IMG/VR virus record: IMGVR_UViG_3300045988_179616
Location: 32,001-96,000 of that record
Length of the DNA stretch: 64,000 bases
Direction: 5' to 3' (one strand)
Origin: a virus
Part shown: positions 1 through 64,000 of the stretch, in pieces
Layout: each line of letters starts with the position of its first letter
Numbering within the stretch: the stretch's first letter is position 1
Position numbers and translations under genes: made by a program
The notes under the pieces: generated by a model
The model's input: the letters and a program-made list of their open reading frames with translations, nothing else
Databases searched by the model: none
What the model was told of the DNA's origin: nothing

Positions 1-1
1 T

Positions 2-100
2 ACATTTGATGTAGACGAGGATATTCGAGACCGGACTTTTGCAATTGATGTATGGGAGGCTGAGGTTCTTGCGAAGCCGGCGCGAGAGGAGGATTACTAA
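2..100 (+). CDS. 3' end of an upstream gene (partial, about 32 codons)
   Basis: The frame is open from the window edge and ends at TAA 98-100. The stop overlaps the next start codon (TAATG). Confidence 0.4.
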   Translation, partial: TFDVDEDIRDRTFAIDVWEAEVLAKPAREEDY

Positions 101-852
101 TGTACCTTTGGGTTGATGATATTAGAACTCCGCCCTGTGATGAATGGCTGTGGGCGCGCTCTGTAAGTGAAGCTATTACAGCTATTAAGTCCTATGAGCA
201 TAACTGGTCTGATGACTCTATTGTTATTAGTCTTGACCATGATGCCGGCGACTTTGAGGTAGATGGAGGAGACTACATTCGCGTTTTGGACTGGCTCGAA
301 CAAGCAGGAAGAAATAGAGCAAGCGATTTAATTGGTCACGTATTTGGTAGATTAACTGTAAAAGCCGATAGCGGAAAGCGAGATAATAAAGGTGGTATTA
401 TTTGGGAATGTGAATGTTCTTGTGGCAATATTGCTTACGTATCTACTTCCAACCTTACAAGATCTAATGGATCTACCATTTCTTGTGGATGTGCCAAATC
501 AAAAGATGAAGAGAGAATTATTTCATCTCTTATTCAGGCACAAATACCATTTATAACCCAAAAACGATTTGAAAGCTGTGTATTTCCAGAAACTGGTCGT
601 CAATTGGTATTTGACTTTTATTTGCCAGAACAAAATATCCCTATTGAGTATGATGGCGAGCAACATTTTCACGAAATTGGTAATGATAGATATGGATATA
701 AAGGCATTGTATCAAGAGATAATTATAAAAATCAGTGGTGTAAAGAAAACAATATTTCATTGATTAGAATACCTTATACAGAATATAGTAATATTGATGA
801 TAATTATATGGAGAGGATTATTAGAAAGAATGGATGGAGGTTAGTCAGATAA
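100..852 (+). CDS. CPR-like receiver fragment fused to a Cys-cluster plus PD-(D/E)XK (Vsr/DUF559-like) homing-endonuclease-like module
   Basis: 250-aa ORF. The N-terminus (YLWVDDIR...ISLDHDAG...GGDYIRVLDWL) looks like a cyclic-phosphate-processing receiver domain but is truncated. The middle has FGRLTV...WECECSCG...SCGC. The C-terminus has FDFYLPEQNIPIEYDGEQH...LIRIPY, a nuclease-core pattern. Confidence 0.55.
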   Translation: MYLWVDDIRTPPCDEWLWARSVSEAITAIKSYEHNWSDDSIVISLDHDAGDFEVDGGDYIRVLDWLEQAGRNRASDLIGHVFGRLTVKADSGKRDNKGGIIWECECSCGNIAYVSTSNLTRSNGSTISCGCAKSKDEERIISSLIQAQIPFITQKRFESCVFPETGRQLVFDFYLPEQNIPIEYDGEQHFHEIGNDRYGYKGIVSRDNYKNQWCKENNISLIRIPYTEYSNIDDNYMERIIRKNGWRLVR

Positions 853-1082
853 TGGTTAAGGCGAAAGTATATCTTAAAACCGGACAAAGTTTTGATGTTG
901 TTGCTAAAAAGATTTGGTGTAAGTACAGCACCATTACAGGGGAACTAACTTCGTTTAAATATGAAGATGGTTTAGAAGTTCCAATCTATCTTGATCTTAC
1001 GCAAGTCGTTGCTGTTGTACAATTTCAGAATGATGAAGGCGAAAATGTGGGCGATACGGGCAAGAACGGGATGGAGGATTAA
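852..1082 (+). CDS. hypothetical protein (76 aa; alternative start at 834)
   Basis: The ATG overlaps the preceding stop (TAATG), GGAGG lies upstream, and it is in the same frame as track ORF 834..1082. Confidence 0.5.
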   Translation: MVKAKVYLKTGQSFDVVAKKIWCKYSTITGELTSFKYEDGLEVPIYLDLTQVVAVVQFQNDEGENVGDTGKNGMED

Positions 1083-3363: not shown

Positions 3364-3918
3364 ATGGCTATTTTCATCGTAAGTGACCTCCATCTTGGGC
3401 ATTCGAAAGATTTCATCTACGGCGCGCGAGGCTTCGAAAATGTCGAAGATATGAATGAGATTATTATTCGTAAGTGGAATGAGATTGTGGATGAAGAGGA
3501 TGATGTATATGTATTGGGAGATTTGGTGATGGGGCCGGAGACAAATCTTCAAATGCTTCGGAGATTGAAAGGTCAGCTTCATATTGTAAGGGGAAACCAC
3601 GATACGGTTACTCGCTGGGACTTTTATCAAAAGCTTCCAAATATAGTGGAAGCAGAGAATAGTCTTTATCTTCGTTATGACGGATACAAGTTCTATTTGT
3701 CCCATTACCCCACGATTACAACGCGCGCTGACGTTGAGAAACCGTTAAAGAAGTGTTTGGTGAATTTGTGCGGGCACACTCACACAAAAGACCCGTTTGA
3801 AGATTGGGGAATTGGAATGATTTACCATTGTGAGGTAGACGCGCACGACTGCGCGCCAGTTCGGATTGATAAGATTATTGCCGATTTGAAACAAAAGATG
3901 AACAACCGCGCTGAGTAA
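3364..3918 (+). CDS. calcineurin-like metallophosphoesterase (second copy)
   Basis: Motifs SDLHLGH, LGDLV, GNHD and GHTH are present. It is distantly paralogous to 1087..1830. Confidence 0.75.
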   Translation: MAIFIVSDLHLGHSKDFIYGARGFENVEDMNEIIIRKWNEIVDEEDDVYVLGDLVMGPETNLQMLRRLKGQLHIVRGNHDTVTRWDFYQKLPNIVEAENSLYLRYDGYKFYLSHYPTITTRADVEKPLKKCLVNLCGHTHTKDPFEDWGIGMIYHCEVDAHDCAPVRIDKIIADLKQKMNNRAE

Positions 3919-5845: not shown

Positions 5846-6014
5846 AAAGCCTCCAAAATTTAGTGTTCAAAATTTTATAGAAAGAATAGCTGGAGTTTAC
5901 TTTCCTATTGAAGAGTAAAGGGGAGGAGTAATTATAATAAGTAAAAATTTTGGGAAAATTTTTGGGTACGCTTTGAGCGTACTTATTTTTTTGGGAAAAA
6001 TTTTTCGGAAAAAG

Positions 6015-6053
6015 GTGTACATATTATGTGTACATATTATGTGTACATATAGA
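6015..6053. repeat. tandem 13-bp repeat, 3 copies (GTGTACATATTAT)
   Basis: The sequence reads gtgtacatattatgtgtacatattatgtgtacatataga, and each unit contains the palindrome TGTACA. Confidence 0.9.
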
Positions 6054-6111
6054 GGGGAGAGTAGTAGGGAGTAGGAAGAGAAGGAGTAGGAATAGAGGCG
6101 TAAAAATATAA

Positions 6112-6159
6112 GTACGAGTAAAGGTACGAGTAAAGGTACGAGTAAAGGTACGAGTAAAG
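6112..6159. repeat. perfect tandem 12-bp repeat, 4 copies (GTACGAGTAAAG)
   Basis: Read directly from the sequence. It is embedded in a polypurine tract of about 160 bp (6050-6210). Confidence 0.95.
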
Positions 6160-6420
6160 GAGGAAGATAAGAGGGGTATAAGTAAAAGGGGAGTAAAAAA
6201 TAGGGCGTACATATTAGGTGTACTTATAGAGCGTATAAGTCTTTTGTAGTTATAGGAAGAGACTAGCTATATAAAAACGGTACTGCCAAGTGACGTCCAA
6301 GAACGACATATATGGTAATGGAAAAGTAGATAGGGATTTTTAGAGTTAGTTAGAATTGAAAAAGGGGTTGGTGCAAATTTTATTAGTAAGCAAATTTTAT
6401 ATATAAAAAATATAAATATA

Positions 6421-6478
6421 ATATGTACACATTATGTGTACATATAATACGTACTTATAATGCGTACTTATAGAGCGT
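6421..6478. repeat. cluster of degenerate GTAC-core repeats (TGTACA(C/T)AT, CGTACTTATA)
   Basis: The sequence reads atatgtacacattatgtgtacatataatacgtacttataatgcgtacttatagagcgta. Related copies lie at 5965-5990 and 6205-6240. Confidence 0.8.
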
Positions 6479-6495
6479 AGTTAGCGCGCTGTCAA
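6467..6495 (-). promoter_or_regulatory. candidate promoter TTGACA-17-TATAAG firing into the repeat region
   Basis: The minus strand reads ttgacagcgcgctaactacgctctataag. Confidence 0.35.
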
Positions 6496-6511
6496 ATTTT
6501 TCTTTGATTCT

Positions 6512-6540
6512 ATTCTACCAAATTTTCAGAGCGTTGTCAA
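6512..6540 (-). promoter_or_regulatory. promoter TTGACA-17-TGGTAGAAT firing into the repeat region
   Basis: The minus strand reads aaaatttgacaacgctctgaaaatttggtagaat, with an extended -10. Confidence 0.5.
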
Positions 6541-6561
6541 ATTTTCAGAATAATAAAAAAA

Positions 6562-6598
6562 AGAGGAGTAGGAATAAATCCTACTCCTCTTTTTTTTC
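6562..6598. terminator. bidirectional terminator
   Basis: Hairpin agaggagtagg-aataaat-cctactcctct, flanked by an A-run on one side and a T-run on the other. Confidence 0.75.
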
Positions 6599-6967
6599 TT
6601 AGTGGGCCTTGACGTAGCCGCGCTGAGGACCTTTCTTGCCCTCGACCTTTACATCGACCTTCTCCACAGTACCATCCAGCACAAAGGGCTTCAGGAGGGA
6701 AGGAACAGACGCTACCTTTACCTCATCGGTAAGACCAGCAGCCTCAATGAGCTGAGAAGCGGTCATAGCCTCATCTCCCATCGCATCCAGCAGAGCCTTA
6801 CGAATGGGAGCCTTCTCATCCTCGGCAGCCTGTTTCTTCTCCAGAACCTTCTGAGCCCGCTTTGCGTTGGCCTCATTCATCTTCTCGATAAGCTCAGTGG
6901 CCTTAGCCATCAGCTCATCATTCATCTCACCATTGGAAATAGCAGTGTAGAACTCACGATTAGTCAT
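6599..6967 (-). CDS. early wHTH-like protein, paralogue A
   Basis: 122 aa. It aligns by eye with 9997..10344 (MTNREF.AI...DEL...MTAS...VKV..KG.Q..Y). It uses G/C-ending codons, unlike its neighbours. Confidence 0.6.
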   Translation of the reverse strand: MTNREFYTAISNGEMNDELMAKATELIEKMNEANAKRAQKVLEKKQAAEDEKAPIRKALLDAMGDEAMTASQLIEAAGLTDEVKVASVPSLLKPFVLDGTVEKVDVKVEGKKGPQRGYVKAH

Positions 6968-7125
6968 AAAATATCTCTTTCTGCCCCTTTTGGCCTTATA
7001 AAGATAAAAGAATTTACGGCCTAAAATTTGACAAGTGGCTTGATGTGCCGTAGCCGTTTTCTTTTGGAGCTCATTCCCAGCTTAGGAGCGTTTTATTTTT
7101 TAGTCTTCCTTGACTTTCTGTATAT

Positions 7126-7154
7126 ATTATAGCGTAGAATTGGGAAAATTTCAA
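7126..7154 (-). promoter_or_regulatory. promoter TTGAAA-17-TATAAT for 6599..6967
   Basis: The minus strand reads tttgaaattttcccaattctacgctataat. Confidence 0.55.
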
Positions 7155-7394
7155 ATTTTACGGTCGCTAAAAATGCGTTTTTTTTAAAAGTAAAACTTTC
7201 CCAGCTTTTTTACAGAAATTTGTAGCTTTCCAGCTTTCCAGCTTATTTATAAAATTTGACAAGGGATAGAATTTGACAGTGGCCGGCGCCGAGTAAATTT
7301 AGCACATATAGAAATTTGACTTTAGTGATTTAGTGTGCTAAAGTGGAAGTAGAAAAAAATTCACAAAAATTTCGTACATTTTGACTATTGAAAT

Positions 7395-7422
7395 TTGACA
7401 AAAGGTATTGTATAATTATAAT
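7395..7422 (+). promoter_or_regulatory. plus-strand promoter TTGACA-16-TATAAT, antisense to the early block
   Basis: The sequence is aaatttgacaaaaggtattgtataattataat. A hairpin plus TTTTA follows about 60 nt downstream. Confidence 0.4.
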
Positions 7423-7442
7423 GGGATAAAATTTGACACGCG

Positions 7443-7450
7443 GCCCGGGC
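7443..7450. repeat. GCCCGGGC element, copy 1
   Basis: Context is cgcggcccgggcaattctttactccgctaaag, next to the terminator at 7481-7500. Confidence 0.9.
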
Positions 7451-7470
7451 AATTCTTTACTCCGCTAAAG

Positions 7471-7505
7471 TGAAAAAGAAACGGTGCATTTCTGCACCGT
7501 TTTAT
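7471..7505. terminator. bidirectional terminator
   Basis: Hairpin acggtgca-tttc-tgcaccgt with flanking aaaaagaa and tttta. Confidence 0.65.
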
Positions 7506-7511
7506 ACAACT

Positions 7512-7736
7512 TTACCAATCATAAGATGGTCTAATAAGTCGTTGAGTATTTGACCCACATTCCCATTCTACAAGAGACAGGTCATTTTCACGCATAAAAT
7601 CTACAGCATTACCATATTCTAATTCATAAAATTCTGCGGTCAATCGTTCGATTGCATCTTTTTCCTCTTCATAGATTCCTTTTAACTGTTCGTTACGTCC
7701 TTAGTAATCAGAAATAATGCAATATACTTTTTTCAT
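7512..7736 (-). pseudogene. small early ORF interrupted by an in-frame TAA at codon 12
   Basis: The ATG (7736-7734) overlaps the upstream stop (ATGA). The reading MKKVYCIISDY-TAA(7703-7701) is followed by 62 further sense codons in the same frame, ending at TAA 7514-7512. Confidence 0.45.
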
Positions 7737-7906
7737 TTTTCAAAAGCCGTCCTTTCTTCATCTTCGCAAATATAATCGTCATCTGCGTCCCAAAAATAGC
7801 CAAAATCGTCGCACTCTTTTAGTGGATTCTCAATACCACACTCGCCTTTTTTGTAGTATGGACAATCCCATCCATTGGCAGGACAATAAATCTTTCCTTT
7901 TCTCAT
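7733..7906 (-). CDS. small Cys-rich protein (57 aa, not in the ORF track)
   Basis: An AGGAGG RBS is present. The product is MRKGKIYCPANGWDCPYYKKGECG... Confidence 0.5.
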   Translation of the reverse strand: MRKGKIYCPANGWDCPYYKKGECGIENPLKECDDFGYFWDADDDYICEDEERTAFEK

Positions 7907-7950
7907 ATAGCCTCCTTTTAGTTATGTCGTCTTCTCTTGTTTGTATATAT

Positions 7951-7979
7951 AGTATAACATACTCTTTCATATTTGTCAA
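7951..7979 (-). promoter_or_regulatory. early promoter TTGACA-17-TATACT
   Basis: The minus strand reads ttgacaaatatgaaagagtatgttatact. Confidence 0.6.
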
Positions 7980-8011
7980 TAAGTTTAGATTGTATTTATA
8001 CGAAACTTTTT

Positions 8012-8019
8012 GCCCGGGC
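8012..8019. repeat. GCCCGGGC element, copy 2
   Basis: Context is tatttatacgaaactttttgcccgggccacaagg. It lies 32 nt upstream of the -35 box of promoter 7951-7979. Confidence 0.9.
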
Positions 8020-8037
8020 CACAAGGGGCGACAAAAG

Positions 8038-8688
8038 TCAACCCCAAAGTGCGCCATCAATATTTGGCATTCTACGCAAACATTCCATGAAGATTTCCTT
8101 TTCAATTAAAACATCTTCCAAACCACAATGAACTTCTTCAAAGGAATTGTTGCCAGACAGATAACGATAGAGAATTTCTGCGGTATACCGTCTTTGACCT
8201 CTTTTGGTTAGATAATTGTTATTGTAACAAAATTCACCATAATTTTCATCTTGAGAAAAGACTTCCTTTGCCATTTTTAGACTATCCCAAAGAATAACAC
8301 CACGAGGGAAAAAATAGCGATACTTTGAAGAAGTTAAATATCGCTGAGAGAGGTTGCAACTTCTATTATCAAATCGCATATTATGAGCGCAAATAATTTT
8401 TATATTGTACTGTTTACAAACATCATGGAGAATGAAACGAATCGTTTTCAAACGGTGGAGCTTGCGCTTTCCAGCTTGGATATCTTCCCAATATTGAGGG
8501 ATTTTTTCTTTAAAATAAGCATAACTCATCAGCTCTTTATCAAGAAAAATATCCGCCACTATATAGGAATGAGTTTCTACAGCTTCGCCAGTTTCAGTAT
8601 CAATGACACCAAAGCCAATATCATAAACCAAGGGGTCATCAAGAGAATTAGTGGTTTCAGTGTCAAGAATCAAAACAAATTTATCCAT
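8038..8688 (-). CDS. DEDDh 3'-5' exonuclease (DnaQ/epsilon-like)
   Basis: Exo motifs are LILDTETT (I), CAHNMRFD (II) and HCGLEDV (III). It has its own promoter at 8720-8748. Confidence 0.8.
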   Translation of the reverse strand: MDKFVLILDTETTNSLDDPLVYDIGFGVIDTETGEAVETHSYIVADIFLDKELMSYAYFKEKIPQYWEDIQAGKRKLHRLKTIRFILHDVCKQYNIKIICAHNMRFDNRSCNLSQRYLTSSKYRYFFPRGVILWDSLKMAKEVFSQDENYGEFCYNNNYLTKRGQRRYTAEILYRYLSGNNSFEEVHCGLEDVLIEKEIFMECLRRMPNIDGALWG

Positions 8689-8719
8689 CAGAATCGGCTC
8701 CTCTCTTTACTGTATACAT

Positions 8720-8748
8720 AGTATAACAGATAAAAAGTGAAATGTCAA
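8720..8748 (-). promoter_or_regulatory. early promoter TTGACA-17-TATACT
   Basis: The minus strand reads ttgacatttcactttttatctgttatact. Confidence 0.6.
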
Positions 8749-8794
8749 TAGTTTTCTTGAAAAAGTCATAAACTTATCCGTGCGTGTCATCGGC

Positions 8795-8802
8795 GCCCGG
8801 GC
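8795..8802. repeat. GCCCGGGC element, copy 3
   Basis: Context is gtgtcatcggcgcccgggcacacttcactacgctaaagcgctaaag. Confidence 0.9.
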
Positions 8803-8838
8803 ACACTTCACTACGCTAAAGCGCTAAAGTTTTTTGCG

Positions 8839-8866
8839 AAAAAAAAGGTGACGATTTCTCGTCACC
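8839..8866 (-). terminator. rho-independent terminator
   Basis: Hairpin ggtgacga-tttc-tcgtcacc with a T8 run on the minus strand. Confidence 0.75.
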
Positions 8867-8873
8867 CTTTCGA

Positions 8874-9230
8874 TCACTTGTTATTTACAGTTTCTCGTTC
8901 GGCTTTCTTCGCCTTTGCCTTTTCTCGTGCAAGGCGGTCCTTTTCCATCTTCTTCCGCTTCTTCTCCTCTCGTTCTGCTTTGGCCTTAGCCTTAACTTCA
9001 CTTTCAAGGCGATAGTTTTCGGCTTCCTCGTAGCCATCAAAAAGGTCGCCGTCCCTCGTCCCCTTGGGGACGCTAAAAGTAAGGTTCAAATAGCCCTCAT
9101 CATCATCCAGCGCCCACGGAATCGAATACGTTCCACTCTTAATCTGAAGAACGGTTTCTCCCTCACTTTCGAGAAAATTCTTGACTTTCTGCATGAAATC
9201 AATCTTCACGACTTCGCTTTTCTTTGCCAT
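8874..9230 (-). CDS. hypothetical protein with an acidic core and a Lys-rich C-terminal tail
   Basis: 118-aa ORF with a promoter at 9262-9290 and a terminator at 8839-8866. Confidence 0.55.
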   Translation of the reverse strand: MAKKSEVVKIDFMQKVKNFLESEGETVLQIKSGTYSIPWALDDDEGYLNLTFSVPKGTRDGDLFDGYEEAENYRLESEVKAKAKAEREEKKRKKMEKDRLAREKAKAKKAERETVNNK

Positions 9231-9261
9231 TCAAAGCACTTCCTTTCTTTACTGTATACAC

Positions 9262-9290
9262 AGTATACCACACAATTTTAATTTTGTCAA
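9262..9290 (-). promoter_or_regulatory. early promoter TTGACA-17-TGGTATACT
   Basis: The minus strand reads ttgacaaaattaaaattgtgtggtatact. Confidence 0.6.
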
Positions 9291-9316
9291 TACCTCTTTT
9301 CTGATTTTCTAAAATT

Positions 9317-9345
9317 ATTATAACAAAAATTTTTTTGAATTTCAA
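9317..9345 (-). promoter_or_regulatory. tandem upstream promoter TTGAAA-17-TATAAT
   Basis: The minus strand reads tttgaaattcaaaaaaatttttgttataat. Confidence 0.5.
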
Positions 9346-9381
9346 ATTTTCTTTAGTACTTTAGTGTGATAAAGCGCCGGC

Positions 9382-9389
9382 GCCCGGGC
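9382..9389. repeat. GCCCGGGC element, copy 4
   Basis: Context is actttagtgtgataaagcgccggcgcccgggcaagtttcgtaaaaag. Confidence 0.9.
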
Positions 9390-9398
9390 AAGTTTCGT

Positions 9399-9425
9399 AA
9401 AAAGAAACGGCGCGAAGTGCGCCGT
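9399..9425 (-). terminator. rho-independent terminator
   Basis: Hairpin acggcgc-gaagt-gcgccgt with tttcttttt on the minus strand. Confidence 0.7.
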
Positions 9426-9832: not shown

Positions 9833-9860
9833 TTTATTTCTCCTTTCTTTTTGTAATTAT

Positions 9861-9889
9861 AGTATAGCAAAAATTTTCTAATTTGTCAA
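9861..9889 (-). promoter_or_regulatory. early promoter TTGACA-17-TATACT
   Basis: The minus strand reads ttgacaaattagaaaatttttgctatact. Confidence 0.6.
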
Positions 9890-9920
9890 CCCCTAAAACC
9901 AATATTTATACGAAACTTCT

Positions 9921-9928
9921 GCCCGGGC
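9921..9928. repeat. GCCCGGGC element, copy 5
   Basis: Context is tatttatacgaaacttctgcccgggcactttcgcgag. It lies 31 nt upstream of the -35 box of promoter 9861-9889. Confidence 0.9.
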
Positions 9929-9962
9929 ACTTTCGCGAGATAGTGTACTAAAGTTTTTCTTT

Positions 9963-9990: not shown

Positions 9991-9996
9991 CTATAC

Positions 9997-10652: not shown

Positions 10653-10655
10653 ACG

Positions 10656-55080: not shown

Positions 55081-55271
55081 TAGCTCTCCTCCATGTCACA
55101 AAATTCACAATATCCTCCAACAAAATGATGTTGGCATTGAGATTGATAGTTTTTATTCTCTCGCAAAAGGCGCGCGACCTCATTATTTAGAGTGAACTGA
55201 TTAGGCGTGAGAAGCGTATTGATAAGTTGATTATTCAAATCAATAGCTTTTCGAATTTCAATTTGAGTCAT
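55080..55271 (-). CDS. small Cys-containing protein (63 aa)
   Basis: ORF overlapping the nrdJ start, with C..H......C..C at the C-terminus. Confidence 0.45.
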   Translation of the reverse strand: MTQIEIRKAIDLNNQLINTLLTPNQFTLNNEVARLLRENKNYQSQCQHHFVGGYCEFCDMEES

Positions 55272-56409
55272 TTATAATTTTCCTCCCATCAAAAATTACT
55301 TTTCTCCATTCATAAAACATTCTAAAGGCTTCATAGTTATTGAATCTAACATATTGAAAAGCATCTCTGGCTTCTTGTGTAGAAGGCCACCTTCGTTGAT
55401 ATTTTGCTCGCCAGCATTTCCAAGGGTCTTGATGTTTAGCTATCCATTTGCAATAATCAACAATTCTATCTGCTTTATAATTATAGTATTTTGACCTTAT
55501 AAACCAATTCAAGACCTCAAAAAGATTTTGTAATTCAGGAGTTGTGATTAGTGTGTCATCATATACAAGTGAAATTTTTATCCAATGTCTATGGAAAAAT
55601 AGAACTTGAGGAATAATTAAGGGTAAACGATTCATTAAAAAGTCATTCTCATCCTTGCATCCCTCGTCAACTTTATAAGACATTTGACTTGTTCCTAAAT
55701 CCCATAAATATCTCATTTTGTCACATAAGACGTCATCCATAAAATTATTATATTGTATTCCAAAAACATCTTCCATAATAGGTAGCCGTAACCATTTTAG
55801 TAGTTCTTCCTCTGAAGATACTTGTATAGGAAATTTAGTTCCAAGCGAATATGGTTTTACAGTATTGCTGTTCAAATTATTTCGAGAATACAACCACTCT
55901 TTTATGAAATCATAAGCACCATCAATGGCACCTACATCGTAATCATGAAGAATGAGGCATCTTGTATTTTGAAACATATAGTCCTCTTTTTTTAGCCAAG
56001 GGTCTATATTTTTCCCATCAATTGAAAGACGAATATGCGCGCTCCATAAAATTCTCTTGAATAGACGGGCGTCATCTTTTATACGACAAAAATTAGGAGA
56101 ATGACGCTCATAGATTGAAAAATCAGGAATGGTTTGTTCAATTTCAAGAGGAAGAGGTTTATATGGACCTGGTTGTATTGCACGTCCTCCAAGAATTATC
56201 TTATCATCAAATAATTCTCGTGGATAAATTCCATCATCATAATCTTTTCTTACATAAAGAGTAGAGAAGCGTTCTGGCGCCAACTCTGGTGCCAGAACAG
56301 AAATTTCTCTTTTTTTCTTATGATAAGCACAAAGCTTCGCGCACTCAAGATTGGGGAGGACATTTTGGTAAGTAAAGAAATCGTAATCATGTACCCCAAT
56401 TATTCCCAT
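55258..56409 (-). CDS. hypothetical protein of unknown function (383 aa) within the replisome operon
   Basis: Long ORF that is translationally overlapped with the dnaE stop. I recognised no motif. Confidence 0.6.
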   Translation of the reverse strand: MGIIGVHDYDFFTYQNVLPNLECAKLCAYHKKKREISVLAPELAPERFSTLYVRKDYDDGIYPRELFDDKIILGGRAIQPGPYKPLPLEIEQTIPDFSIYERHSPNFCRIKDDARLFKRILWSAHIRLSIDGKNIDPWLKKEDYMFQNTRCLILHDYDVGAIDGAYDFIKEWLYSRNNLNSNTVKPYSLGTKFPIQVSSEEELLKWLRLPIMEDVFGIQYNNFMDDVLCDKMRYLWDLGTSQMSYKVDEGCKDENDFLMNRLPLIIPQVLFFHRHWIKISLVYDDTLITTPELQNLFEVLNWFIRSKYYNYKADRIVDYCKWIAKHQDPWKCWRAKYQRRWPSTQEARDAFQYVRFNNYEAFRMFYEWRKVIFDGRKIINDSN

Positions 56410-59400
56410 TACTGTTCGGTCCTCCCCTGACTTTCTACTGTGCCATCTTCATTTATTTTTGTGATTAGCTCAATGCCATGATAAGGAGTATTTTTGTACT
56501 TTTTCATGACAAATTCGTTCTCTCTTCTGATGCCTGTGATAATGATTTTGTTTCCTCTACTGAAGATACTTTTCTCAATGACGTGTTTTTTGCCATCGGC
56601 GCCTCGTTCGCTAATTTGCTTGTCATAATAAGAAAAAACTTCACCAAAAACTCTTACATTCACAACGCCCTCTCTAGTCAAAACCGTTACCATTTTTTTA
56701 CTCTTATCTCTATCAAGGACAGTACCACAAATGCGATGAATCTTGAAAAGTGGGATTTTCTTTCCTTTTATTTCAATTATTCTATTAATTTCAGGCTGTT
56801 CGTTTAGTTCAAAGAAATTTGAAAAACCGCATAGCCGATAATTAACATCTTGAAGTTCATGCTGATGGAAATAACAAGAAACACTATCCATCTCCCATTT
56901 ACTAATAGAACCAAGACAGTATTTATTCCAAACATCAGACATTAGCCTATTATTTACATCATTTAGTAATAATTGGTTATTATCTTTTATGAAAGGACGA
57001 ATAATATCCATCTGAGCCTTATAAATTTTATCCCACTTGGTTTGAAGAATCGCAAATCCGCTTTCAGTATCATAAGGTTCTAGAAAGTCAACATCGAAGT
57101 TCTTTTCGTAAAAGCTCATTGCAATGTTATCTAATCCATAATATTGAGTCCCTATCTTCATCTTCTTTAGATATTTATTGAAATTAAAGACTCGTCTTTG
57201 AAGGTCGTACTCATCAGGAATCAAACCAAAATTAATCAACATCTTCATATTTTGGAGAGTTATCCGCTTTTTCGTATCACTAATTTCTGAGACATAATAT
57301 CGCATTAAGCTCTCTCTATCGCCAAATTCATCAAAAGCACCAGCTTTTATAAGATTTATCATTTGAGGCTTATTGATTTTTACTTTTGAGAGAAAATCAT
57401 CAATTGAGGAGTAAGGACGATTTTCGATTATGGATTTTACAATATCTTCGCCTACTTTTACAATTCCGCTCATACCAAAACGAATTATTGATTTTTCTAC
57501 ATCGGGAGAGAAGGTATAGGTAGACTTATTTATATCTGGGGGAGCAACATCAATTCCCGACATCTTCATTTTTCCAATGGCAGAACTAATTTTTCCATAA
57601 TTTGTAGTTTTAGCTTTTTTCTTTTTCTTTTTCTCTTTTATGACTTCTTCATCATCATCTTCATCATCATCGTTATCATCCTCAAATTCTTCTACGCAAT
57701 CAACATAAGTTTCTTCAATAGTATCGTCTTCCTCATCTTCTTCTGCTCCCTCATTTCCTCCACTGTCACTAATAAGACAAGCACAATTCCAGAAAATAAT
57801 CGGAAAGCAATAAGCCAGATTCATTTCTTGAAGAGCGATTAATGAGTAAGCTAAGGTATGCGATGCATTAAAGCCATAACCTTTACTCATACAAACCAAT
57901 ACATTCCAAACATACTTACAAAATTTCTCATCCAATCCTTTTTCTTTTATGACCCTAAAATATTCATCTTGTAGTTCAAGGAAAGCTTTAGGATTTTTCT
58001 TTGCGATAGATTTTCTTAGTTTATCTGCCCAGGTAAGATTGAAACCTCCACATTCAGGCAACTGAACCAATTCCATAAATTTCTCTTGAGACTCACAGAT
58101 ACCATAAGAAATCTTTACTACTGGTTCAAGAATTTTCATTTCTTCTTTTGTAAGACCGTAATTCTCCATTTCTTTATACCACAAAGAAATATCATTTTTA
58201 AAACGAGCAAACTTATTTAGAGGTTGCTCAGCTCCTTTTTCTTGAGCCATCAAACGAATTACAGAGTTCAAAACAGCTAAATCATCTACTGATTGAGGAT
58301 GAGTCAGTGCAATACCATTAATTCCACTTTGCTTTTCCATTTGAAACAAACTTGTGATTTTGTGGTCCCATACCATTTTCCACATATCCGGCGCTGTCCG
58401 CTCCAAATTGTAAATACCAATGATGCTTTCATAGGTTTCTTTTAGAGTATCTCTTTTTTTGACATATCCATAATCAACTAGTAAATCTAGGCAGTTATGG
58501 ATTTTATCCAGAGCTTCTACTGATAACAAGTCATACTTGATAAGCGACACATCCTCGCACGCATGGAGGTCAAAAGCTGTAATGATAGTTCCATCTGGCG
58601 CACGCATTAGTCCGGTTGAATTGGTAAAAGGCTCATCTACAAAGATTACTCCGCCGGCATGGATTCCGTACCCACAAATCAATCCCTCAATTTTTTGGGC
58701 AACTTTCCAAACTTCGGGATAGTTTTCGGTCATTTCATATACGAATTGTTTGATTGGTTTCCAATCATTTTCGGTATCACCATACATACATTGAGATAAG
58801 GTTCGTAATAATCCTCGGTCAGAGGGTATCAACGAGGCTAAATATGAGGCAATATCAACATCTATCCCTAGACCACGACAGGCGGTAAGGATTGCTGATT
58901 TAGATTTTTCTTGACGAAAAGTCGCAACATTTGAAACTCGATTATCTCCATAGACTTTTCGTAAATGGTTTAAGACCTCTGCGCGCCGACCACCCTCAAT
59001 ATCTACATCCACATCAAGTACAGAAACTCGGTCTGGATTTAGGAATCTCCATCTAAAAGTCTTAGTGGTTTCTTGCAGAGGATTGATTTGAGTTATATTC
59101 AAAAGATAAAGTAGGATAAAGCCTACTCCAGAGCCTCTTCCTGGCCCGACTAATGTACCAGCTTTCCAACATTCCTCAATAATTCTTTGAAGATTTAGAT
59201 AGTAAGCTGACCAATGGGCTTTGTTTACATTGGAAGAAATCCAAGTCATTTCAAGGCAGGCATTGACTTCATCCCAGGTCTTCTGATTCCACAATTCTTG
59301 AGGTCCATCTTCTAGTGCCTCAACAATCATACAAGCCAAAACTTGGTCTCCAACATAATCAGACTCCATGAATGTTTTCAGATAAGGAATTCTTTCTATC

Positions 59401-60377
59401 CAACAATTCTGAACATATTTAATTTTAGATTCTTTCCAAGGGAGTTGTGGAATATATAAAGGCTTTAGGAGACTATAATCCTCACACAAGTCCTTTATTT
59501 TTAGGATATTTCTATATGCTATTTGTAACTGCTCTTGTGAGAAATATCCAAAATAACTTTCAAGCTCTTCTGTATCCATTAGATAAGTTGTAGCGTAGAA
59601 ATCATCAACCTCTCTATCACCATTTTGAGCGTTTAGATAAGCCTTATGAATTGCTCTGTCTTCTTTTTTGAGATAATGAGTATCTGTTGTGATAATATAA
59701 GGAATTTCAAACTCATTTGATAATTCAAAAAGTTTTTTATTGACATAAATTTGTTCTTTATTATTACTGGGTTGCATTTCAAAAAAGAAATTTCCATGGC
59801 CGAATAGGTTGTCCATTTGTTTTATCCAGTTATGAATTTTTGGCATCAACTCTGGATTATCTTTTGCTTTTAGAAGCTGGGTAGAAAGGCATCCTCCAAG
59901 ACAAGCAGTTGAACCAATTACGTGGCCAGGATTCGCTCCAATAATTTCAAATAAGTCATTATAATAAGTTGGAACTCGACGCATTCCTCGCGCCATATAA
60001 CTTCTCAACCAAGCATGAGTAGAAATTTCACGAATCTGCTTATGACCGATGGCATCTTTGGCCAATAAGATAAAGTGATAATATTTGTCCTGTCCAGCTT
60101 TATAATTAGAAGCGTTTAGTCCATTTCGACAAAGATAAATTTCGTTTCCTTGGATGACTTTGAAGTTGGGATGGTTTTCTTTTATCTTTTTATAATATTT
60201 TTCAACTCTAACAGCTCCAGAGATACAATCATGGTTAGTAATGGCTACTACTTCATGTCCCAGCTCAATAGCATAATCAATCAAATCTTCGACTTTTATG
60301 ATACAGTCGCGCAGTCGAAGATTTGAGAACTCATCGTGGTTATGCAACGAGCCCGGATATGGGATTCTTTCACTCAT
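56409..60377 (-). CDS. dnaE: DNA polymerase III alpha subunit-like replicative polymerase (DnaE type, PHP domain)
   Basis: 1322 aa. It has a PHP N-terminus (SLHNHDEFSNLRLRD...ITNHD), GIHAGGVIF and KYDLLSVEAL, plus an acidic/Lys insertion near residues 870-920. Confidence 0.9.
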   Translation of the reverse strand: MSERIPYPGSLHNHDEFSNLRLRDCIIKVEDLIDYAIELGHEVVAITNHDCISGAVRVEKYYKKIKENHPNFKVIQGNEIYLCRNGLNASNYKAGQDKYYHFILLAKDAIGHKQIREISTHAWLRSYMARGMRRVPTYYNDLFEIIGANPGHVIGSTACLGGCLSTQLLKAKDNPELMPKIHNWIKQMDNLFGHGNFFFEMQPSNNKEQIYVNKKLFELSNEFEIPYIITTDTHYLKKEDRAIHKAYLNAQNGDREVDDFYATTYLMDTEELESYFGYFSQEQLQIAYRNILKIKDLCEDYSLLKPLYIPQLPWKESKIKYVQNCWIERIPYLKTFMESDYVGDQVLACMIVEALEDGPQELWNQKTWDEVNACLEMTWISSNVNKAHWSAYYLNLQRIIEECWKAGTLVGPGRGSGVGFILLYLLNITQINPLQETTKTFRWRFLNPDRVSVLDVDVDIEGGRRAEVLNHLRKVYGDNRVSNVATFRQEKSKSAILTACRGLGIDVDIASYLASLIPSDRGLLRTLSQCMYGDTENDWKPIKQFVYEMTENYPEVWKVAQKIEGLICGYGIHAGGVIFVDEPFTNSTGLMRAPDGTIITAFDLHACEDVSLIKYDLLSVEALDKIHNCLDLLVDYGYVKKRDTLKETYESIIGIYNLERTAPDMWKMVWDHKITSLFQMEKQSGINGIALTHPQSVDDLAVLNSVIRLMAQEKGAEQPLNKFARFKNDISLWYKEMENYGLTKEEMKILEPVVKISYGICESQEKFMELVQLPECGGFNLTWADKLRKSIAKKNPKAFLELQDEYFRVIKEKGLDEKFCKYVWNVLVCMSKGYGFNASHTLAYSLIALQEMNLAYCFPIIFWNCACLISDSGGNEGAEEDEEDDTIEETYVDCVEEFEDDNDDDEDDDEEVIKEKKKKKKAKTTNYGKISSAIGKMKMSGIDVAPPDINKSTYTFSPDVEKSIIRFGMSGIVKVGEDIVKSIIENRPYSSIDDFLSKVKINKPQMINLIKAGAFDEFGDRESLMRYYVSEISDTKKRITLQNMKMLINFGLIPDEYDLQRRVFNFNKYLKKMKIGTQYYGLDNIAMSFYEKNFDVDFLEPYDTESGFAILQTKWDKIYKAQMDIIRPFIKDNNQLLLNDVNNRLMSDVWNKYCLGSISKWEMDSVSCYFHQHELQDVNYRLCGFSNFFELNEQPEINRIIEIKGKKIPLFKIHRICGTVLDRDKSKKMVTVLTREGVVNVRVFGEVFSYYDKQISERGADGKKHVIEKSIFSRGNKIIITGIRRENEFVMKKYKNTPYHGIELITKINEDGTVESQGRTEQ

Positions 60378-60407
60378 TTACAAACCTCCTTTTTATTTTC
60401 TATATAT

Positions 60408-60436
60408 ATTATATACTAAATTCCAAAAAAATTCAA
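60408..60436 (-). promoter_or_regulatory. promoter TTGAAT-17-TATAAT (conserved class) upstream of dnaE
   Basis: The minus strand reads ttgaatttttttggaatttagtatataatatatatagaaaataaaaaggagg. Confidence 0.55.
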
Positions 60437-60439
60437 CTA

Positions 60440-62158
60440 TTAAAAAGCAAACCTTCCATCTTGAACTTCCATATCTACAATAAAAAGTTGAGGGGTTTTG
60501 TGCCCCATCCATTCGTTAATATTAGGTCTACCAACTAAGGTAATTTCCATTTCATTTGAAAAACTTTTTAGTTCTTCTATCAAATCTTTTGCTCTGAACT
60601 TGATATAGGTAATTCCATTTTTCTCAATTCGTAATGTATCTTTATTTTTCCCTATAACTTTTATCTCATTAGGCGAAATTATTAAATTAGTAATAGCTAT
60701 CATAGCTTCAGGATTTTGCTGTCCAAATACTTGCTCATACGGCGCGACATCAAGAATTATGGCTTCTATGTCTTTATCATTAGCTCTTCGAACAAAATTT
60801 ACATCATAAATATTTTCTCCAAAATCAATTTGGGAGAGTTCTTTATTTGCTATTTCATGGAGTTTTGAAAGATTCTTGTCAAAAACACTAACTCCGAATG
60901 CTTGGTCGTGGCCAAGAGTATATTCAAAAAGACCCGTCCCCGATAGAAAATCTTTGAAAGAAGTTAGCTCCGTATTACTTGGCGCGCGAGCGCTACCTCT
61001 GTCATAGCCTTCGGAATTTCGTCTAGCCAATATAGTGGGTTTATGATATTTCGCTGATAATACCATAGCAACTAATCCATTCAACTCAGCAGGGAAATCG
61101 TCATCATCATCAAGTCTTACAAATAAAACCTGATTTTCTAACAAATCTTGCTTGAAGATTTTTACTTCTAATTCCTGGACTATCTTTTCTTTCATCTTAT
61201 CTTGGTGAGCTTTTGCATTCGTACATTCACGCGCGCTCTCTATGCAAAGTCTTTCCATTGTTCCTTTAGCTCCGCGCTTATGACACTCTACCATTTCATT
61301 TGGTTCAATAAAACTACGATAAAGTCGATATTTTTCTTCCATTGACCCTACTCGAATCATAGCATTTATAAGAGGAACAATATAAAAAGCAACAGTTGTT
61401 GGGTTTATCTTTCCACCCATTGAATAGTCCTGTTTATCTAATAGAACTCGTAGCATTGTATTCTTGATATTTTGAAAACCAGTTTGAACCAAATATTGAT
61501 TTTCATATTCAAGCATACTCATCATATCTCCAACTAATGAGATTGCACAAAGGTCAATATAGTCATAAGCCCAGTCTCTCAAAAAATAGTCATCTAGGGC
61601 TCGGCAAAATTGCCAAACAACGCCTCCACCACAAAGGTTTTTATTTCTATAATTTTTAGAAGTTTGGTTATTTATAAGTATCATATTGGGTGGAATTTCG
61701 CTTTCTGCTTCTTTTAGGTGGTGGTCTAAAACGAGAACAGGACAGGTAAACTCCTTTATATATTGTCCGTCATTTGTGGCGCTATCTGGCGCGATAATAA
61801 GGCTCCATTCTTTTTCCTCTAGCTGGTCCATCATATCAGAAAAACCATGCTGTTTTCCCTCATGAATAAAAAATTCAATTTCTTTATCTGGATTCCATCT
61901 TTTTAGATATTGATAAATTATAGCAAAAGAACAAATTCCATCGCAATCGCAATCTGCAATAATGGCGTAAGGCTTTTTATCAGAAATCGTCTTTTCAATA
62001 GCCTTTATTCCCATCTGATAATTATCCAAATCTTCAAAACTTTGTAAGCATTCTTTCGTTGGATGAAGAAAGGTTTGAATGTCCTGAATACCTCGCGCGC
62101 GAAGTAAGTTCTTTCCATAGTCTTCTTTTATCTCTTGATTTACTAGTCGATATTTCAC
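60440..62158 (-). CDS. DHH-family RecJ-like exonuclease
   Basis: Contains DHH motifs IIADCDCDGI and VLVLDHH, and a DHHA1-like TLGHDQAFGV. Confidence 0.7.
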   Translation of the reverse strand: MKYRLVNQEIKEDYGKNLLRARGIQDIQTFLHPTKECLQSFEDLDNYQMGIKAIEKTISDKKPYAIIADCDCDGICSFAIIYQYLKRWNPDKEIEFFIHEGKQHGFSDMMDQLEEKEWSLIIAPDSATNDGQYIKEFTCPVLVLDHHLKEAESEIPPNMILINNQTSKNYRNKNLCGGGVVWQFCRALDDYFLRDWAYDYIDLCAISLVGDMMSMLEYENQYLVQTGFQNIKNTMLRVLLDKQDYSMGGKINPTTVAFYIVPLINAMIRVGSMEEKYRLYRSFIEPNEMVECHKRGAKGTMERLCIESARECTNAKAHQDKMKEKIVQELEVKIFKQDLLENQVLFVRLDDDDDFPAELNGLVAMVLSAKYHKPTILARRNSEGYDRGSARAPSNTELTSFKDFLSGTGLFEYTLGHDQAFGVSVFDKNLSKLHEIANKELSQIDFGENIYDVNFVRRANDKDIEAIILDVAPYEQVFGQQNPEAMIAITNLIISPNEIKVIGKNKDTLRIEKNGITYIKFRAKDLIEELKSFSNEMEITLVGRPNINEWMGHKTPQLFIVDMEVQDGRFAF

Positions 62159-63204
62159 TTCACAATTACTCTCCTTTTCAATAACTCTTCAAATTTTTCT
62201 TGTCCCTCATCTACCGGAGAGTCCTTCTTTTTTGTAAGATTTTCTCTATCATAGATAAAAGAAAAATTTGAATAATTCTTATATTTACTACACATCTTCC
62301 ATAATTTTTGAAAATAGTCTTCACTTCCGGGCTTTTCTTCATTATCAAAGCAGATAACAATTTCTTTTGGTTGGGCATAACGCATCAAAATATCAAGTTG
62401 ATATTTATTGAATTGACTTCCACAAGAAGCAACTGCACAATTAGGAAATGAAAAATTTTCACACATAAGAACGCTTTTCTCTGCTTCAAAGACATAGCAA
62501 ATTCCATAGCGTTTGATATTTTCCAAATTTTTATCTAAACCATAGAGATTCAAACTTAATGGATGAGAATACCACTTACCCTCAATTTGAACTGGCATAT
62601 ACTTTCCTACGTTTTCTACTTCCCACTGATTGAGCGCGCGCCCTCTAATTCCAACTAATCCGCCCCTAACATTATAATGAGGAATTATGATTTTATTTTG
62701 ACCAATAGAAAAACGAATATTGAATTTATCCATAGCCTTATGAGAAATTCCTTCCTCTTCCCAATCAGCAGGATACTCCTTTATGAAAACATCCAAAATA
62801 CCTTTCTCATAAGTTGGAAGCTCTCGTCTTTCTTTTTTGGGCATAAACTCGTTTCTTTTTGATTTATAGCTTTCGTTGATTTCTGTTTCAGTAAATCTTT
62901 TCTCACCATAACTCCGTACAAATTCTAAAACATCTTCATGCCAGTCATAAGTGATTCCTCTCGTTTCATAATAATGCTCAATAAAACGAAAGATATTTTG
63001 CGCGCCACATTCACTATAACACATAAAAATATGTGTATTCTTATAGTAATAAAGTTTCCAAGATGCTTCATCTAAATTAGTATTATGACACGCAGTTTTA
63101 CATAAAAGAAAATCTCCCTTATCTTGCCAAGGAATCTCCAATTTATCCAAAATTTTCTCTACTATTTCATCAGTAAGATTTTCAATTATTTCTCTATAAT
63201 CCAA
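62155..63204 (-). CDS. dnaG: DNA primase (zinc finger plus TOPRIM)
   Basis: Has an N-terminal Cys/His cluster (CKTACHN...CYSECG), TOPRIM-like VFEAEKSVLM and CFDNEE, and sits adjacent to the helicase gene. Confidence 0.6.
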   Translation of the reverse strand: MDYREIIENLTDEIVEKILDKLEIPWQDKGDFLLCKTACHNTNLDEASWKLYYYKNTHIFMCYSECGAQNIFRFIEHYYETRGITYDWHEDVLEFVRSYGEKRFTETEINESYKSKRNEFMPKKERRELPTYEKGILDVFIKEYPADWEEEGISHKAMDKFNIRFSIGQNKIIIPHYNVRGGLVGIRGRALNQWEVENVGKYMPVQIEGKWYSHPLSLNLYGLDKNLENIKRYGICYVFEAEKSVLMCENFSFPNCAVASCGSQFNKYQLDILMRYAQPKEIVICFDNEEKPGSEDYFQKLWKMCSKYKNYSNFSFIYDRENLTKKKDSPVDEGQEKFEELLKRRVIVK

Positions 63205-63218
63205 AGAAATCTCCCTTC

Positions 63219-64000
63219 TTACTTATTTATCTCCTCTAAGAACTTTTGTTCTTTTTCATCTAATTCCCATTCAACCTTTTGCTGAGTATCATAAAAATCA
63301 AGAATAGGATTCATCCTATCATCAGTTACGAATAAATCGGTAAGTCTTAGCGTCCCTGTATTGAAATAACTCCAAATACGGACTTGAGTCCAGCGACCTG
63401 ACCGAACTTTGAACACATCAAAGACTCGATTTGGAATCATACCACCCATCAAATTTCCATCTTTTTGAAGTATATCTATTTCATCTTTCGTAGGTCGCGC
63501 GCCAATTATACCATTATCAGCTTTATTGATTGTTGCCCGACCACCAGCTAAACTCGCTTCATTTCGTATTTCTGAATTATCATCTGCTTTGGCATTTACT
63601 TGAGTTGAAGTAAAAATTGAGACATTTTGCTCAATAGCTAAATCTTTTAGAGCTGTTGCCATCAATGATAGAATTTCATCATTTCTAAGATTGTGTCCTC
63701 GAAACTCATTCAAAACTCCAGGAGAAATAAAAATATAATCAAAAAAGACATAACGTCGTTGAGAAAGAATTACTTCCTCTCTAACACTTAGTTTTATTTG
63801 CTCAATAGAAGGATTTGGTATTCTCATTAGTTTTAAAGTTTTATAGGTCTTGATTATATGACGCGCGACCTCAACTCTTTTTCTTTCATCATCAGTAAGG
63901 GTATTGAACTTAAATTTAGATTCTTCTACTCCACTAAGATATGCCAAAATCATTTTTATTATTTGCTCTGGTTTTTGCTCTGTCATAATAAAAAGAACTG
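63219..64000 (-). CDS. dnaB: DnaB-like replicative helicase (partial; the N-terminus lies beyond the window)
   Basis: Contains a RecA-fold C-terminal domain with Walker-B-like YVFFDYIFI and VSIFTSTQVNAKAD. The frame stays open upstream of the tracked ATG (63986) to the window edge (..VLFIMTEQ.. resembles v.fSlEMs). Confidence 0.65.
   Translation of the reverse strand, partial: VLFIMTEQKPEQIIKMILAYLSGVEESKFKFNTLTDDERKRVEVARHIIKTYKTLKLMRIPNPSIEQIKLSVREEVILSQRRYVFFDYIFISPGVLNEFRGHNLRNDEILSLMATALKDLAIEQNVSIFTSTQVNAKADDNSEIRNEASLAGGRATINKADNGIIGARPTKDEIDILQKDGNLMGGMIPNRVFDVFKVRSGRWTQVRIWSYFNTGTLRLTDLFVTDDRMNPILDFYDTQQKVEWELDEKEQKFLEEINK

Follow-up and report, generated by a model that had tools for sequence, protein, structure and literature searches.

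A GCGCG word kept at about eight times chance in AT-rich gut and rumen phages, a candidate recognition word of a phage enzyme

Over-represented short words are rare in genomes and informative: Chi, DNA uptake sequences and FtsK-orienting polar sequences (KOPS) each revealed a DNA-tracking machine. Comparable systems in phages include the Chi-rich genomes and the recognition sites of replicative primases. A high density of Chi goes with the lack of a recombination module in the lambdoid phages (PMC12315714). T7-type primases read short template words through a zinc motif, with effective sites longer than three bases, and Okazaki fragments measure 1–6 kb (PMC8599759). Here we describe a dispersed word in a stretch of 64,000 nucleotides of viral DNA (IMG/VR record IMGVR_UViG_3300045988_179616, positions 32,001–96,000), the whole of which is referred to as the window. 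It covers about half of a tailed-phage genome type of ~115 kb and has a G+C content of 35.9%. The pentamer GCGCG and its complement CGCGC, together referred to as the word, are kept at about eight times chance, with about one copy per 0.3–0.9 kb per strand. Judging from sequence comparisons, we tentatively read GCGCG as a word that is specific to the lineage and recognized by an enzyme of the phage, the primase being the most plausible one; our confidence in this reading is low.

The enriched word and its tests against chance

Relative to a first-order Markov model, from which these expected counts are taken, the excess of alternating C/G words rises with word length: 202 copies of GCGC are observed where 67.5 are expected, 125 of CGCG (47.5 expected), 73 of GCGCG (9.9), 76 of CGCGC (9.4), 38 of GCGCGC (2.0) and 19 of CGCGCG (1.4), and the excess reaches 19–34-fold. 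The GCGCG/CGCGC pair, at 149 copies against 19.3 expected from dinucleotides (7.7-fold), is the top-ranked 5-mer of the window. Mean spacing is 886 nt on the plus strand and 849 nt on the minus strand, compared with ~6.6 kb per strand by chance, and each strand also has word-free stretches of 9–13 kb. The strands are balanced, with 73 copies on the plus strand and 76 on the minus strand, or 26 and 28 if only non-palindromic copies are counted, and no regional switch of orientation is seen along the window.

Permuting synonymous codons within each gene fails to reproduce these counts. Over 300 such shuffles GCGC averages 89.9 (184 observed, z 12), GCGCG 18.6 (74 observed) and GCGCGC 6.1 (37 observed), the highest of the 300 shuffles reaching 14 for GCGCGC. 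A stricter shuffle that keeps protein, codon usage and dinucleotides gives 42 copies of GCGCG against the 74 observed (z 8.5). GCGC is enriched about 2-fold in each codon phase and the longer words 3–10-fold in nearly every phase, and non-coding DNA, which makes up 8.5% of the window, holds ~8% of the copies. The signal therefore acts at the level of DNA, on double-stranded DNA, and independently of the encoded proteins; an artefact of codons or proteins is ruled out by the codon shuffle, the dicodon shuffle and the phase analysis. The major capsid gene illustrates the effect on codon choice: its only two CGC codons both lie inside the word, in a gene that otherwise uses CGT, GCT and GCC almost exclusively.

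The over-representation had first been described in an earlier note, which a model made from the letters of the window alone. Every coordinate quoted there carries the word named, and its hand count of about 16 copies in the first 5.7 kb agrees with the 16 distinct runs of at least 5 nt found there. Its claim that the motif is built from atypical codons is borne out by the capsid gene and by the terL run, made of CGC and GCG, and its argument for selection on DNA rather than on protein survives the shuffles, the near-equal codon phases and the presence of copies in non-coding DNA. Neither a strand nor a phase preference, both of which it had proposed to look for, is found. A literature search for GCGCGC enrichment in phages found no report.

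The smallest enriched unit is the pentamer, which occurs as alternating C/G runs of 5–8 nt. Maximal runs number 54 at length 5, 24 at length 6, 9 at length 7 and 5 at length 8. Their decay with length is geometric up to length 4 (ratio 0.15–0.2), has a shoulder at lengths 5–8 (0.4–0.6) and stops at 8–9 nt; in non-enriched phages the ratio is 0.11–0.2 throughout. Isolated GCGC, with flanks that do not extend the alternation, occurs at about chance (0.3–1.6; AGCGCA 1.3, AGCGCT 0.8, TGCGCA 0.3), and CGCG outside GCGC is depleted to only 14 copies, with ACGCGT, ACGCGA, CCGCGG and CCGCGA all at zero. All hexamers containing the pentamer are 3–19-fold enriched except GCGCGT (0.5-fold, one copy), and those bearing the pentamer on both strands top the list (GCGCGC 19-fold, CGCGCG 14-fold). 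T is the least favoured base after GCGCG in the window and in every subclade of relatives, and GCGCGTG occurs once.

Several broader or smaller units were tried and rejected. Among hexamers of G and C only, those on alternating, GCGC-type cores alone stand out, while CCGG, GGCC and CCGC are at ~1, so that G+C runs in general are not in excess. The flank tables rule out both tetramers, GCGC and CGCG, as the unit, and the lack of enrichment of any other dinucleotide alternation, CA/TG included, rules out slippage of dinucleotide repeats. The enrichment of alternating CG reported in the earlier note stands, and the palindromic, restriction-site-like word of which it spoke is refined, on the flank tables and run lengths, to the pentamer, in place of restriction-type tetramers or hexamers.

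The overlap of the word with the restriction-type palindromes GCGC, CGCG and GCGCGC raises the possibility that a methyltransferase, a base-modifying enzyme or a nickase acts at GCGCG. The depletion of CGCG outside GCGC and its tolerance inside are as expected if GCGC-type methylation shields these sites, and the major nicks of phage T5 lie in R/GCGCRGG (PMC3517423). Protection, however, explains tolerance and not an 8-fold excess, and with ~150 sites on both strands, nicked palindromic hexamers would break the DNA. No DNA methyltransferase, Vsr or base-modification gene is found in Pfam and PHROGs scans of ~95 kb of the ~115-kb genome type, ~20 kb and many small open reading frames lying outside the screen, and the sole GIY-YIG protein looks like a homing endonuclease. 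We consider this explanation quite unlikely. Of the two forms in which it had been proposed, T5-type nicking is disfavoured because the word is equally frequent on both strands, and a modifying enzyme has the palindrome overlap in its favour and the screen against it.

Lineage range, distribution and maintenance of the word

GCGCGC is 5–20-fold above expectation in nearly every relative found through TerL, and the excess is present in nearly all relatives down to ~45–55% protein identity. GCGCG/CGCGC is the top 5-mer in each subclade (3.3–6.8-fold), so that the comparison with related phages proposed in the earlier note shows a clade-wide feature. Among loci found through DnaB, the excess is present at a DnaB identity of ~47% or more and gone at 41%. 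Three distant cultured relatives (Phass-1, Geobacillus virus E3 and Enterococcus phage H1) show no enrichment, and most of 67 other large gut and rumen phage loci are without the excess. The cultured relative Lactococcus phage PMBT69 (L326, positions 70001–120000) avoids the word rather than accumulating it, with no GCGCG in 50 kb, where 5.1 copies are expected, and no GCGCGTG.

Chromosomal DNA was sampled as 65 Bacillota loci around glyA, from gut and rumen, which may not include the host of the phage; their median ratio is 0.40 and the pooled ratios are 0.52–0.59, a depletion. The genome scan with a serine hydroxymethyltransferase query returned these bacterial controls and one mis-binned phage contig. 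This outlier (L104; CACZGA010000005.1, metagenome-assembled genome RUG12586) is 47 kb long and was binned as an uncultured Erysipelotrichaceae bacterium of the rumen, but is a phage of the clade, collinear with the window at 45.5–63 kb; its assignment is either a binning error or a weak hint of a host. GCGCG is tied to the phage lineage and not to the environment or, in this Bacillota sample that may lack the host, to host chromosomes.

These comparisons bear on the view that the excess is a by-product, either of a host-like composition (amelioration) or of palindrome avoidance pushing codons to GCG and CGC. GATC (29 copies, 246 expected) and TTAA (286, 726 expected) are strongly depleted in the window, and nearly all other 4-bp palindromes, ACGT and TCGA included, are avoided, leaving fewer alternatives for CpG contexts. 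Across the relatives L001–L078, however, depletion of TTAA is a feature of the human-gut subclades that the rumen subclade does not share, and GATC avoidance also varies sharply; rumen relatives keep the GCGCG excess without TTAA avoidance and with weak GATC avoidance. The bacterial loci are depleted rather than enriched, ratios near 1 for CCGG, GGCC and CCGC do not fit, and neither does the growth of the excess with word length. A by-product is therefore largely refuted and, in our estimate, highly improbable; amelioration in particular, which the earlier note had raised, is unsupported because the 65 loci are depleted, with the caveat that the host may lie outside that sample. The dependence of TTAA avoidance on subclade suggests that phages of this one clade face hosts that differ in their restriction systems.

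Sister phages, large and AT-rich and with DnaE, RecJ-like, primase and DnaB proteins at ~30–36% identity, are not enriched in GCGCG. They are 6–7-fold enriched in TGCGG/CCGCA, at one copy per 0.6–0.9 kb per strand and with the extended forms TGCGGC, TGCGGGA and TGCGGA. TGCGG counts on the two strands are 35/33, 28/34 and 25/19 in three of four loci and 43/21, or ~2:1, in the fourth (L254); in the bacterial loci TGCGG is enriched only 1.2–1.4-fold. Related lineages thus carry different G+C-rich pentamers at a similar kilobase spacing, which looks like a recognition word co-evolving with a lineage-specific reader. In this group (L248, L254, L269, L281 and L212) the extended form TCCCGCA/TGCGGGA has 9 and 12 copies where 0.2–0.5 are expected, and the L212 type has AGGCGG, which is strand-biased, with 8–10 copies on one strand and 0–1 on the other.

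Along the window the word is unevenly used (Table 1), usage being measured as the fraction of synonymously compatible sites that carry it. The densest part is 60–64 kb, with 14 palindromic hexamers in 4 kb. The earlier note had described a near-absence from the tail-tip genes; indeed one copy falls in 36300–45517, and 0–2% of compatible sites are used there, compared with 23–26% in the head, rightward early and replication genes. To its list are added the tape-measure gene, whose central region is word-free in all four genomes examined, and the leftward early genes. The Dit–Tal–adhesin module is common to only 2 of ~15 near relatives, Dit being present also in one other contig (49% identity), that of relative L222, whose tail genes carry the word. 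Owing to its low G+C content, its presence in so few near relatives and the word-bearing tail genes of L222, the tail tip is probably a recently exchanged module, perhaps a host-range swap, in line with the mosaic history that had been suggested for it.

Table 1. Copies of the word, its usage by module, and the replication genes of the phage, in window coordinates.
Feature	Position	Strand	Usage	Details
Dispersed word GCGCG/CGCGC	1–64000	both		
GCGCGCGC run in terL	16604–16611			8 nt; CTG CGC GCG CTT (Leu-Arg-Ala-Leu); codons CGC and GCG
GCGCGC in major capsid gene	21905–21910			ATG CGC GCC
GCGCGCGC run in RuvC-like resolvase gene	48344–48351			
GCGCGCGC run in serine hydroxymethyltransferase gene	51401–51408			
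CGCGCGCG run in RecJ-like gene	62094–62101			
GCGCGCGC run in primase gene	62634–62641			
Rightward early genes			0.23	
Head genes			0.23	
Replication genes			0.26	
Nucleotide metabolism genes			0.16	
Lysis genes			0.09	
Tape-measure gene	27580–35289	+	0.06 (5.8%)	6 copies
Leftward early genes	6000–13400	-	0.045	2 copies, despite 40% G+C
Tal			0.02	
Dit and adhesin			0	
Word-poor Dit–Tal–adhesin tail-tip module	35356–45517	+		one copy, at 37588; 29–30% G+C
Own replication genes of the phage	56409–64000	-		
DnaE-type DNA polymerase III alpha	56409–60377	-		
RecJ-like exonuclease	60440–62158	-		
Primase	62155–63204	-		349 aa; N-terminal zinc-ribbon motif (CKTACH...CYSEC) and Toprim; candidate word reader
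DnaB-like helicase	63219 onward	-		cut by window end; 514 aa in relative L166

Positions of the word are not conserved beyond the ordinary. In distant relatives (~45–65% protein identity) the odds ratio of site sharing is 4.1, within the 1.4–10 of control words, and conserved functional sites at fixed positions are rejected on this ground; of all words tested, however, this one has the highest base rate at compatible sites, 0.18–0.23. What is maintained is therefore copy number and not position. In 15 near relatives (89–97% nucleotide identity), four-fold-site G/C conservation is 0.826 inside the word and 0.64–0.68 outside it, with A/T sites at 0.863. At polymorphic word sites the major/minor ratio is 1.69, compared with 0.27 for other words that are G/C-only or contain CpG; this test of rare gains against rare losses is a comparison between words only, the relatives being too diverged for an absolute reading. 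Existing copies are thus shielded from the drift towards A/T that affects G/C sites elsewhere, and change about half as fast as other synonymous G/C sites. The protection could result from purifying selection or, less likely, from low mutability.

Low mutability is at the core of the view that the word is functionless and that the replication or repair of the lineage creates or preserves C/G runs, through hypomutability or biased repair; poor modules would then be new acquisitions that have not yet drifted to equilibrium. Such a neutral context bias fits a clade-wide excess whose sites turn over, the coincidence of poor modules with likely recent imports, and the DnaE polymerase and repair-type genes that the phage encodes, and it accounts for the slower change at four-fold sites as well as selection does. 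Several features of the word itself do not fit. The donor words GTGCG, GCACG and GCGTG have ratios of 0.9–1.5 (in the window and two subclades), so that transition neighbours are not depleted and a Vsr-type signature is missing. Among dinucleotide repeats CG alone is enriched, and the run-length shoulder at 5–8 nt ends in a sharp cut-off. The sister word TGCGG is non-repetitive and of similar density, which is recognition-like rather than a matter of slippage or stacking, and the tape-measure gene, a core gene, is nonetheless word-poor in all relatives examined. A neutral bias is, on this evidence, rather unlikely.

Candidate readers of the word

The tentatively preferred reading is that of a dispersed signal for an enzyme of the phage lineage and not of the host. 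The candidate reader is the zinc-ribbon/Toprim primase, acting with the DnaB-like helicase and the DnaE polymerase. At 36% G+C, chance would supply a G+C-rich priming word no more than once in about 6.6 kb of each strand, and about one word per kb on both strands could provide lagging-strand starts at the spacing of Okazaki fragments for either direction of the fork. A palindromic hexamer would serve both strands simultaneously, and this would account for the top enrichment of GCGCGC and CGCGCG. Strand symmetry, kilobase spacing, lineage specificity and absence from the sampled host-type chromosomes all favour a primase. The protein has a Toprim_2 match, and its CKTACH...CYSEC motif is largely kept in six primase homologues, with the first Cys missing in three. 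A primase signal had been listed in passing in the earlier note, and is the best-fitting candidate, although we infer it from these correspondences.

Several points weigh against this reading. An alignment of seven primase sequences shows no clean split between the two types of phage, the GCGCG-type sequences being 40, 39 and 32% identical to the window primase and the TGCGG-type sequences 34, 36 and 33%. The word-free stretches of 9–13 kb per strand indicate that the word is not strictly required, and an enrichment of primase sites across a whole genome would, to our knowledge, be without precedent. CGCGC is also the top word in a few distant phages (L200, L201, L206 and L273; DnaB identity 28–35%), which could be a sign of a shared host factor instead. 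The four-fold-site conservation could come from lower mutability instead of selection. The link between the word and the primase, or any named protein, is one that we infer, and a host-specific reader is a further possibility.

More generally, it is conceivable, and we hold it with similarly low confidence, that AT-rich gut and rumen phages with their own DnaE–DnaB–primase replisome keep a private G+C-rich word that is read by a phage-encoded enzyme. This private word would be GCGCG in the present clade and TGCGG in the sister clades, at about one per kb per strand. It would be read either by the primase or by a helicase-nuclease that leaves DNA with the word intact, and could then be a self-signal that word-depleted host DNA does not carry.

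A part in DNA topology, with the runs as preferred sites of a phage gyrase or as Z-DNA-prone sinks for negative supercoils, is suggested by the GyrA and GyrB genes that near relatives encode just past the window. Gyrase cleaves GxxC cores, with GATC preferred in Streptococcus pneumoniae (PMC12630141). With GATC almost eliminated here, GCGC could be its substitute, and of all alternations only CG, the best Z-DNA former, is enriched. Yet isolated GCGC, itself a GxxC core, is not enriched, and the sister word TGCGG is non-alternating. Sister phages without the GCGCG word also encode gyrase, which weakens the association of the word with the phage enzyme. Z-DNA favours longer tracts, for which 5–9 nt is too short, and the runs here are mostly 5–6 nt and capped at 8–9 nt; the Z-DNA role that had been put forward is disfavoured because the runs stop there. 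We regard a topological role as very unlikely.

A Chi-like role would have the word attenuate an AddAB/RecBCD-type helicase-nuclease, of the host or encoded by the phage, so that permuted or concatemeric phage DNA is protected from either end and recombination-dependent replication is stimulated. Chi-rich phages exist, and their imported modules are without Chi, as the tail module here is without the word (PMC12315714, PMC3784561). The Lactobacillales Chi, GCGCGTG, begins with the word, to which another Firmicutes Chi, AGCGG, is similar (PMC5959072); selection on density and not on position is also Chi-like, and one member of the clade is binned with the Erysipelotrichaceae, a group outside the bacterial sample. 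Against this, the word has no orientation bias, with its non-palindromic copies at 26 and 28, whereas known Chi-rich phages have ratios of 20:3 and 32:0 (PMC12315714). It is depleted (0.52–0.59-fold) in the 65 Bacillota loci, a sample that may not include the host, GCGCG is followed by T least of all and GCGCGTG is found once, and PMBT69, the Chi of whose host is GCGCGTG, has no GCGCG in 50 kb. The phage also has recombination genes of its own (RecJ-like, UvrD, AAA_24 and RuvC-like). The Chi-like role proposed in the earlier note is disfavoured because orientation bias and enrichment in the sampled bacteria are both lacking, and is in our view unlikely.

Gene content of the window and comparison with known systems

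The window encodes packaging and head proteins (terminase large subunit, portal, capsid), a 2569-aa tape-measure protein and the Dit–Tal–adhesin tail tip, enzymes of nucleotide metabolism (serine hydroxymethyltransferase, dCMP deaminase, dUTPase, ribonucleotide reductase) and proteins of replication and recombination (DnaE-type polymerase III alpha, RecJ-like exonuclease, Toprim primase, DnaB-like helicase, RuvC-like resolvase). Beyond its right end, near relatives encode the remainder of DnaB, an AAA_24 protein, GyrA and GyrB, and also a GIY-YIG homing-type endonuclease, a UvrD helicase, an ATP-dependent ligase, RNase H, PhoH and ClpP. Cultured phages are all distant, the top TerL match being Geobacillus virus E3 at 39% identity, and relatives in IMG/VR are many, from human gut and rumen, with TerL identities of 46–98% and contigs of 107–121 kb. 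A near-identity DNA search of the phage collection gave no match to the window, an exact TerL look-up made as a host clue gave none, and the adhesin has no match among cultured phages. The only matches of a 229-aa product of the lysis region (46670–47359) are of low identity, to phages of Clostridium perfringens and to uncultured gut phages.

Within the word-poor leftward early region lies a different repeat, the 8-bp palindrome GCCCGGGC, with 8 copies where 0.06 are expected (window 7443–12131). The copies, at 7443, 8012, 8795, 9382, 9921, 10645, 11410 and 12124, all stand in gaps between the retained leftward early genes, with the gene-strand flank ...aaaga(a/c)(t/g)tGCCCGGGC, and the repeat probably has a regulatory part in the early region, for example as an operator.

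The rightward early genes (100–852, 991–1830 and 3364–3918) encode a protein with a cyclic-phosphate-processing receiver (cREC_REC) domain and two metallophosphoesterases, which may have counter-defence functions; the domain of the first of these proteins is widespread in unrelated large gut phages and is not kept in near relatives. Upstream of the terminase, a 439-aa protein (13760–15079) matches the phage sigma-factor family PHROG 5767, and its C terminus has a weak match to a Lar-like restriction-alleviation family. A large nucleotide-supply module lies at 48174–56409 and includes a weak ThyX-like protein; near relatives add the GyrB and GyrA of the phage (L166, 1948–6212), and no base-modification enzyme was recognized.

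The terL match extends over 2.0–2.6 kb in near relatives L007, L044, L052, L053 and L058, compared with 1.8 kb in the window. Those relatives seem to carry an insertion in terL (an intron, intein or homing element) that the window gene (16368–18155) is without. In relative L222 (IMGVR_UViG_3300018475_000104), the tape-measure and tail genes form long open frames only with TAG as a sense codon, and TAG seems to be recoded in this phage; Phass-1, a distant relative, is placed in a ‘code 15 clade’.

If true, the reading of a private word would make GCGCG the first genome-wide, selected, phage-private recognition word. A restriction-like palindrome family is enriched throughout a clade of abundant, uncultured gut and rumen phages that avoid almost all other 4-bp palindromes. 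Were the reader a phage primase or nuclease, a constraint of replication or self-recognition could reshape synonymous codon choice across a genome, the word could be a sequence signature for sorting such phages in metagenomes, and its synonymous removal would be a handle on function once a host is found. The ‘rare’ codons of these phages, a point of caution, are not rare for translational reasons.

Among known systems, restriction sites offer identical sequences: GCGC is the site of HhaI, CGCG that of BstUI/FnuDII and GCGCGC that of BssHII, and CGCG outside the pentamer is avoided here. Restriction pressure, however, depletes sites, whereas the embedded forms here are 8–19-fold enriched with no cognate methyltransferase found in the ~95 kb screened. 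The T5-type nick sites (R/GCGCRGG) share the GCGC core with the word; known nick systems have 5–14 sites on one strand (PMC3517423), and the window has ~150 on both strands (73 and 76). In Vsr repair, acting at CCWGG in Escherichia coli, a palindromic methylation-type word is likewise over-represented, but the products of T:G mismatches are not depleted here and neither a vsr nor a C5-methyltransferase gene is found in the same ~95 kb. (CG)n tracts that form Z-DNA are favoured by length, unlike the runs of mostly 5–6 nt here, and CA/TG alternation is not enriched.

Closer likenesses are seen with primase and Chi sites. The sites of T7- and DnaG-type primases (5'-GTC-3' for T7, extended to pentamers) are short template words read by a zinc-ribbon domain and needed repeatedly, on both strands and at Okazaki spacing, and a matching spacing and a zinc-ribbon primase are present here; the word, as a putative site of the primase of this phage, differs in being G+C-only and often palindromic. 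In the Chi-rich phages (E. coli LLS, Pseudomonas MD8 and lambdoid phages) a short G+C-rich oligomer likewise occurs inside genes far above chance, its number rather than its position is selected, and recent imports are without it. Their word is strongly one-oriented, is the host's own Chi and enriched in the host, and comes in phages without recombination genes of their own, whereas here both orientations are equal, palindromic forms are favoured, the sampled bacteria are depleted and recombination genes are present. The feature is real, strong, clade-wide and set at the level of DNA; it resembles the accumulation of Chi while failing the Chi tests of orientation bias and of a missing recombination module, and is best filed with the dispersed, selected oligomers.

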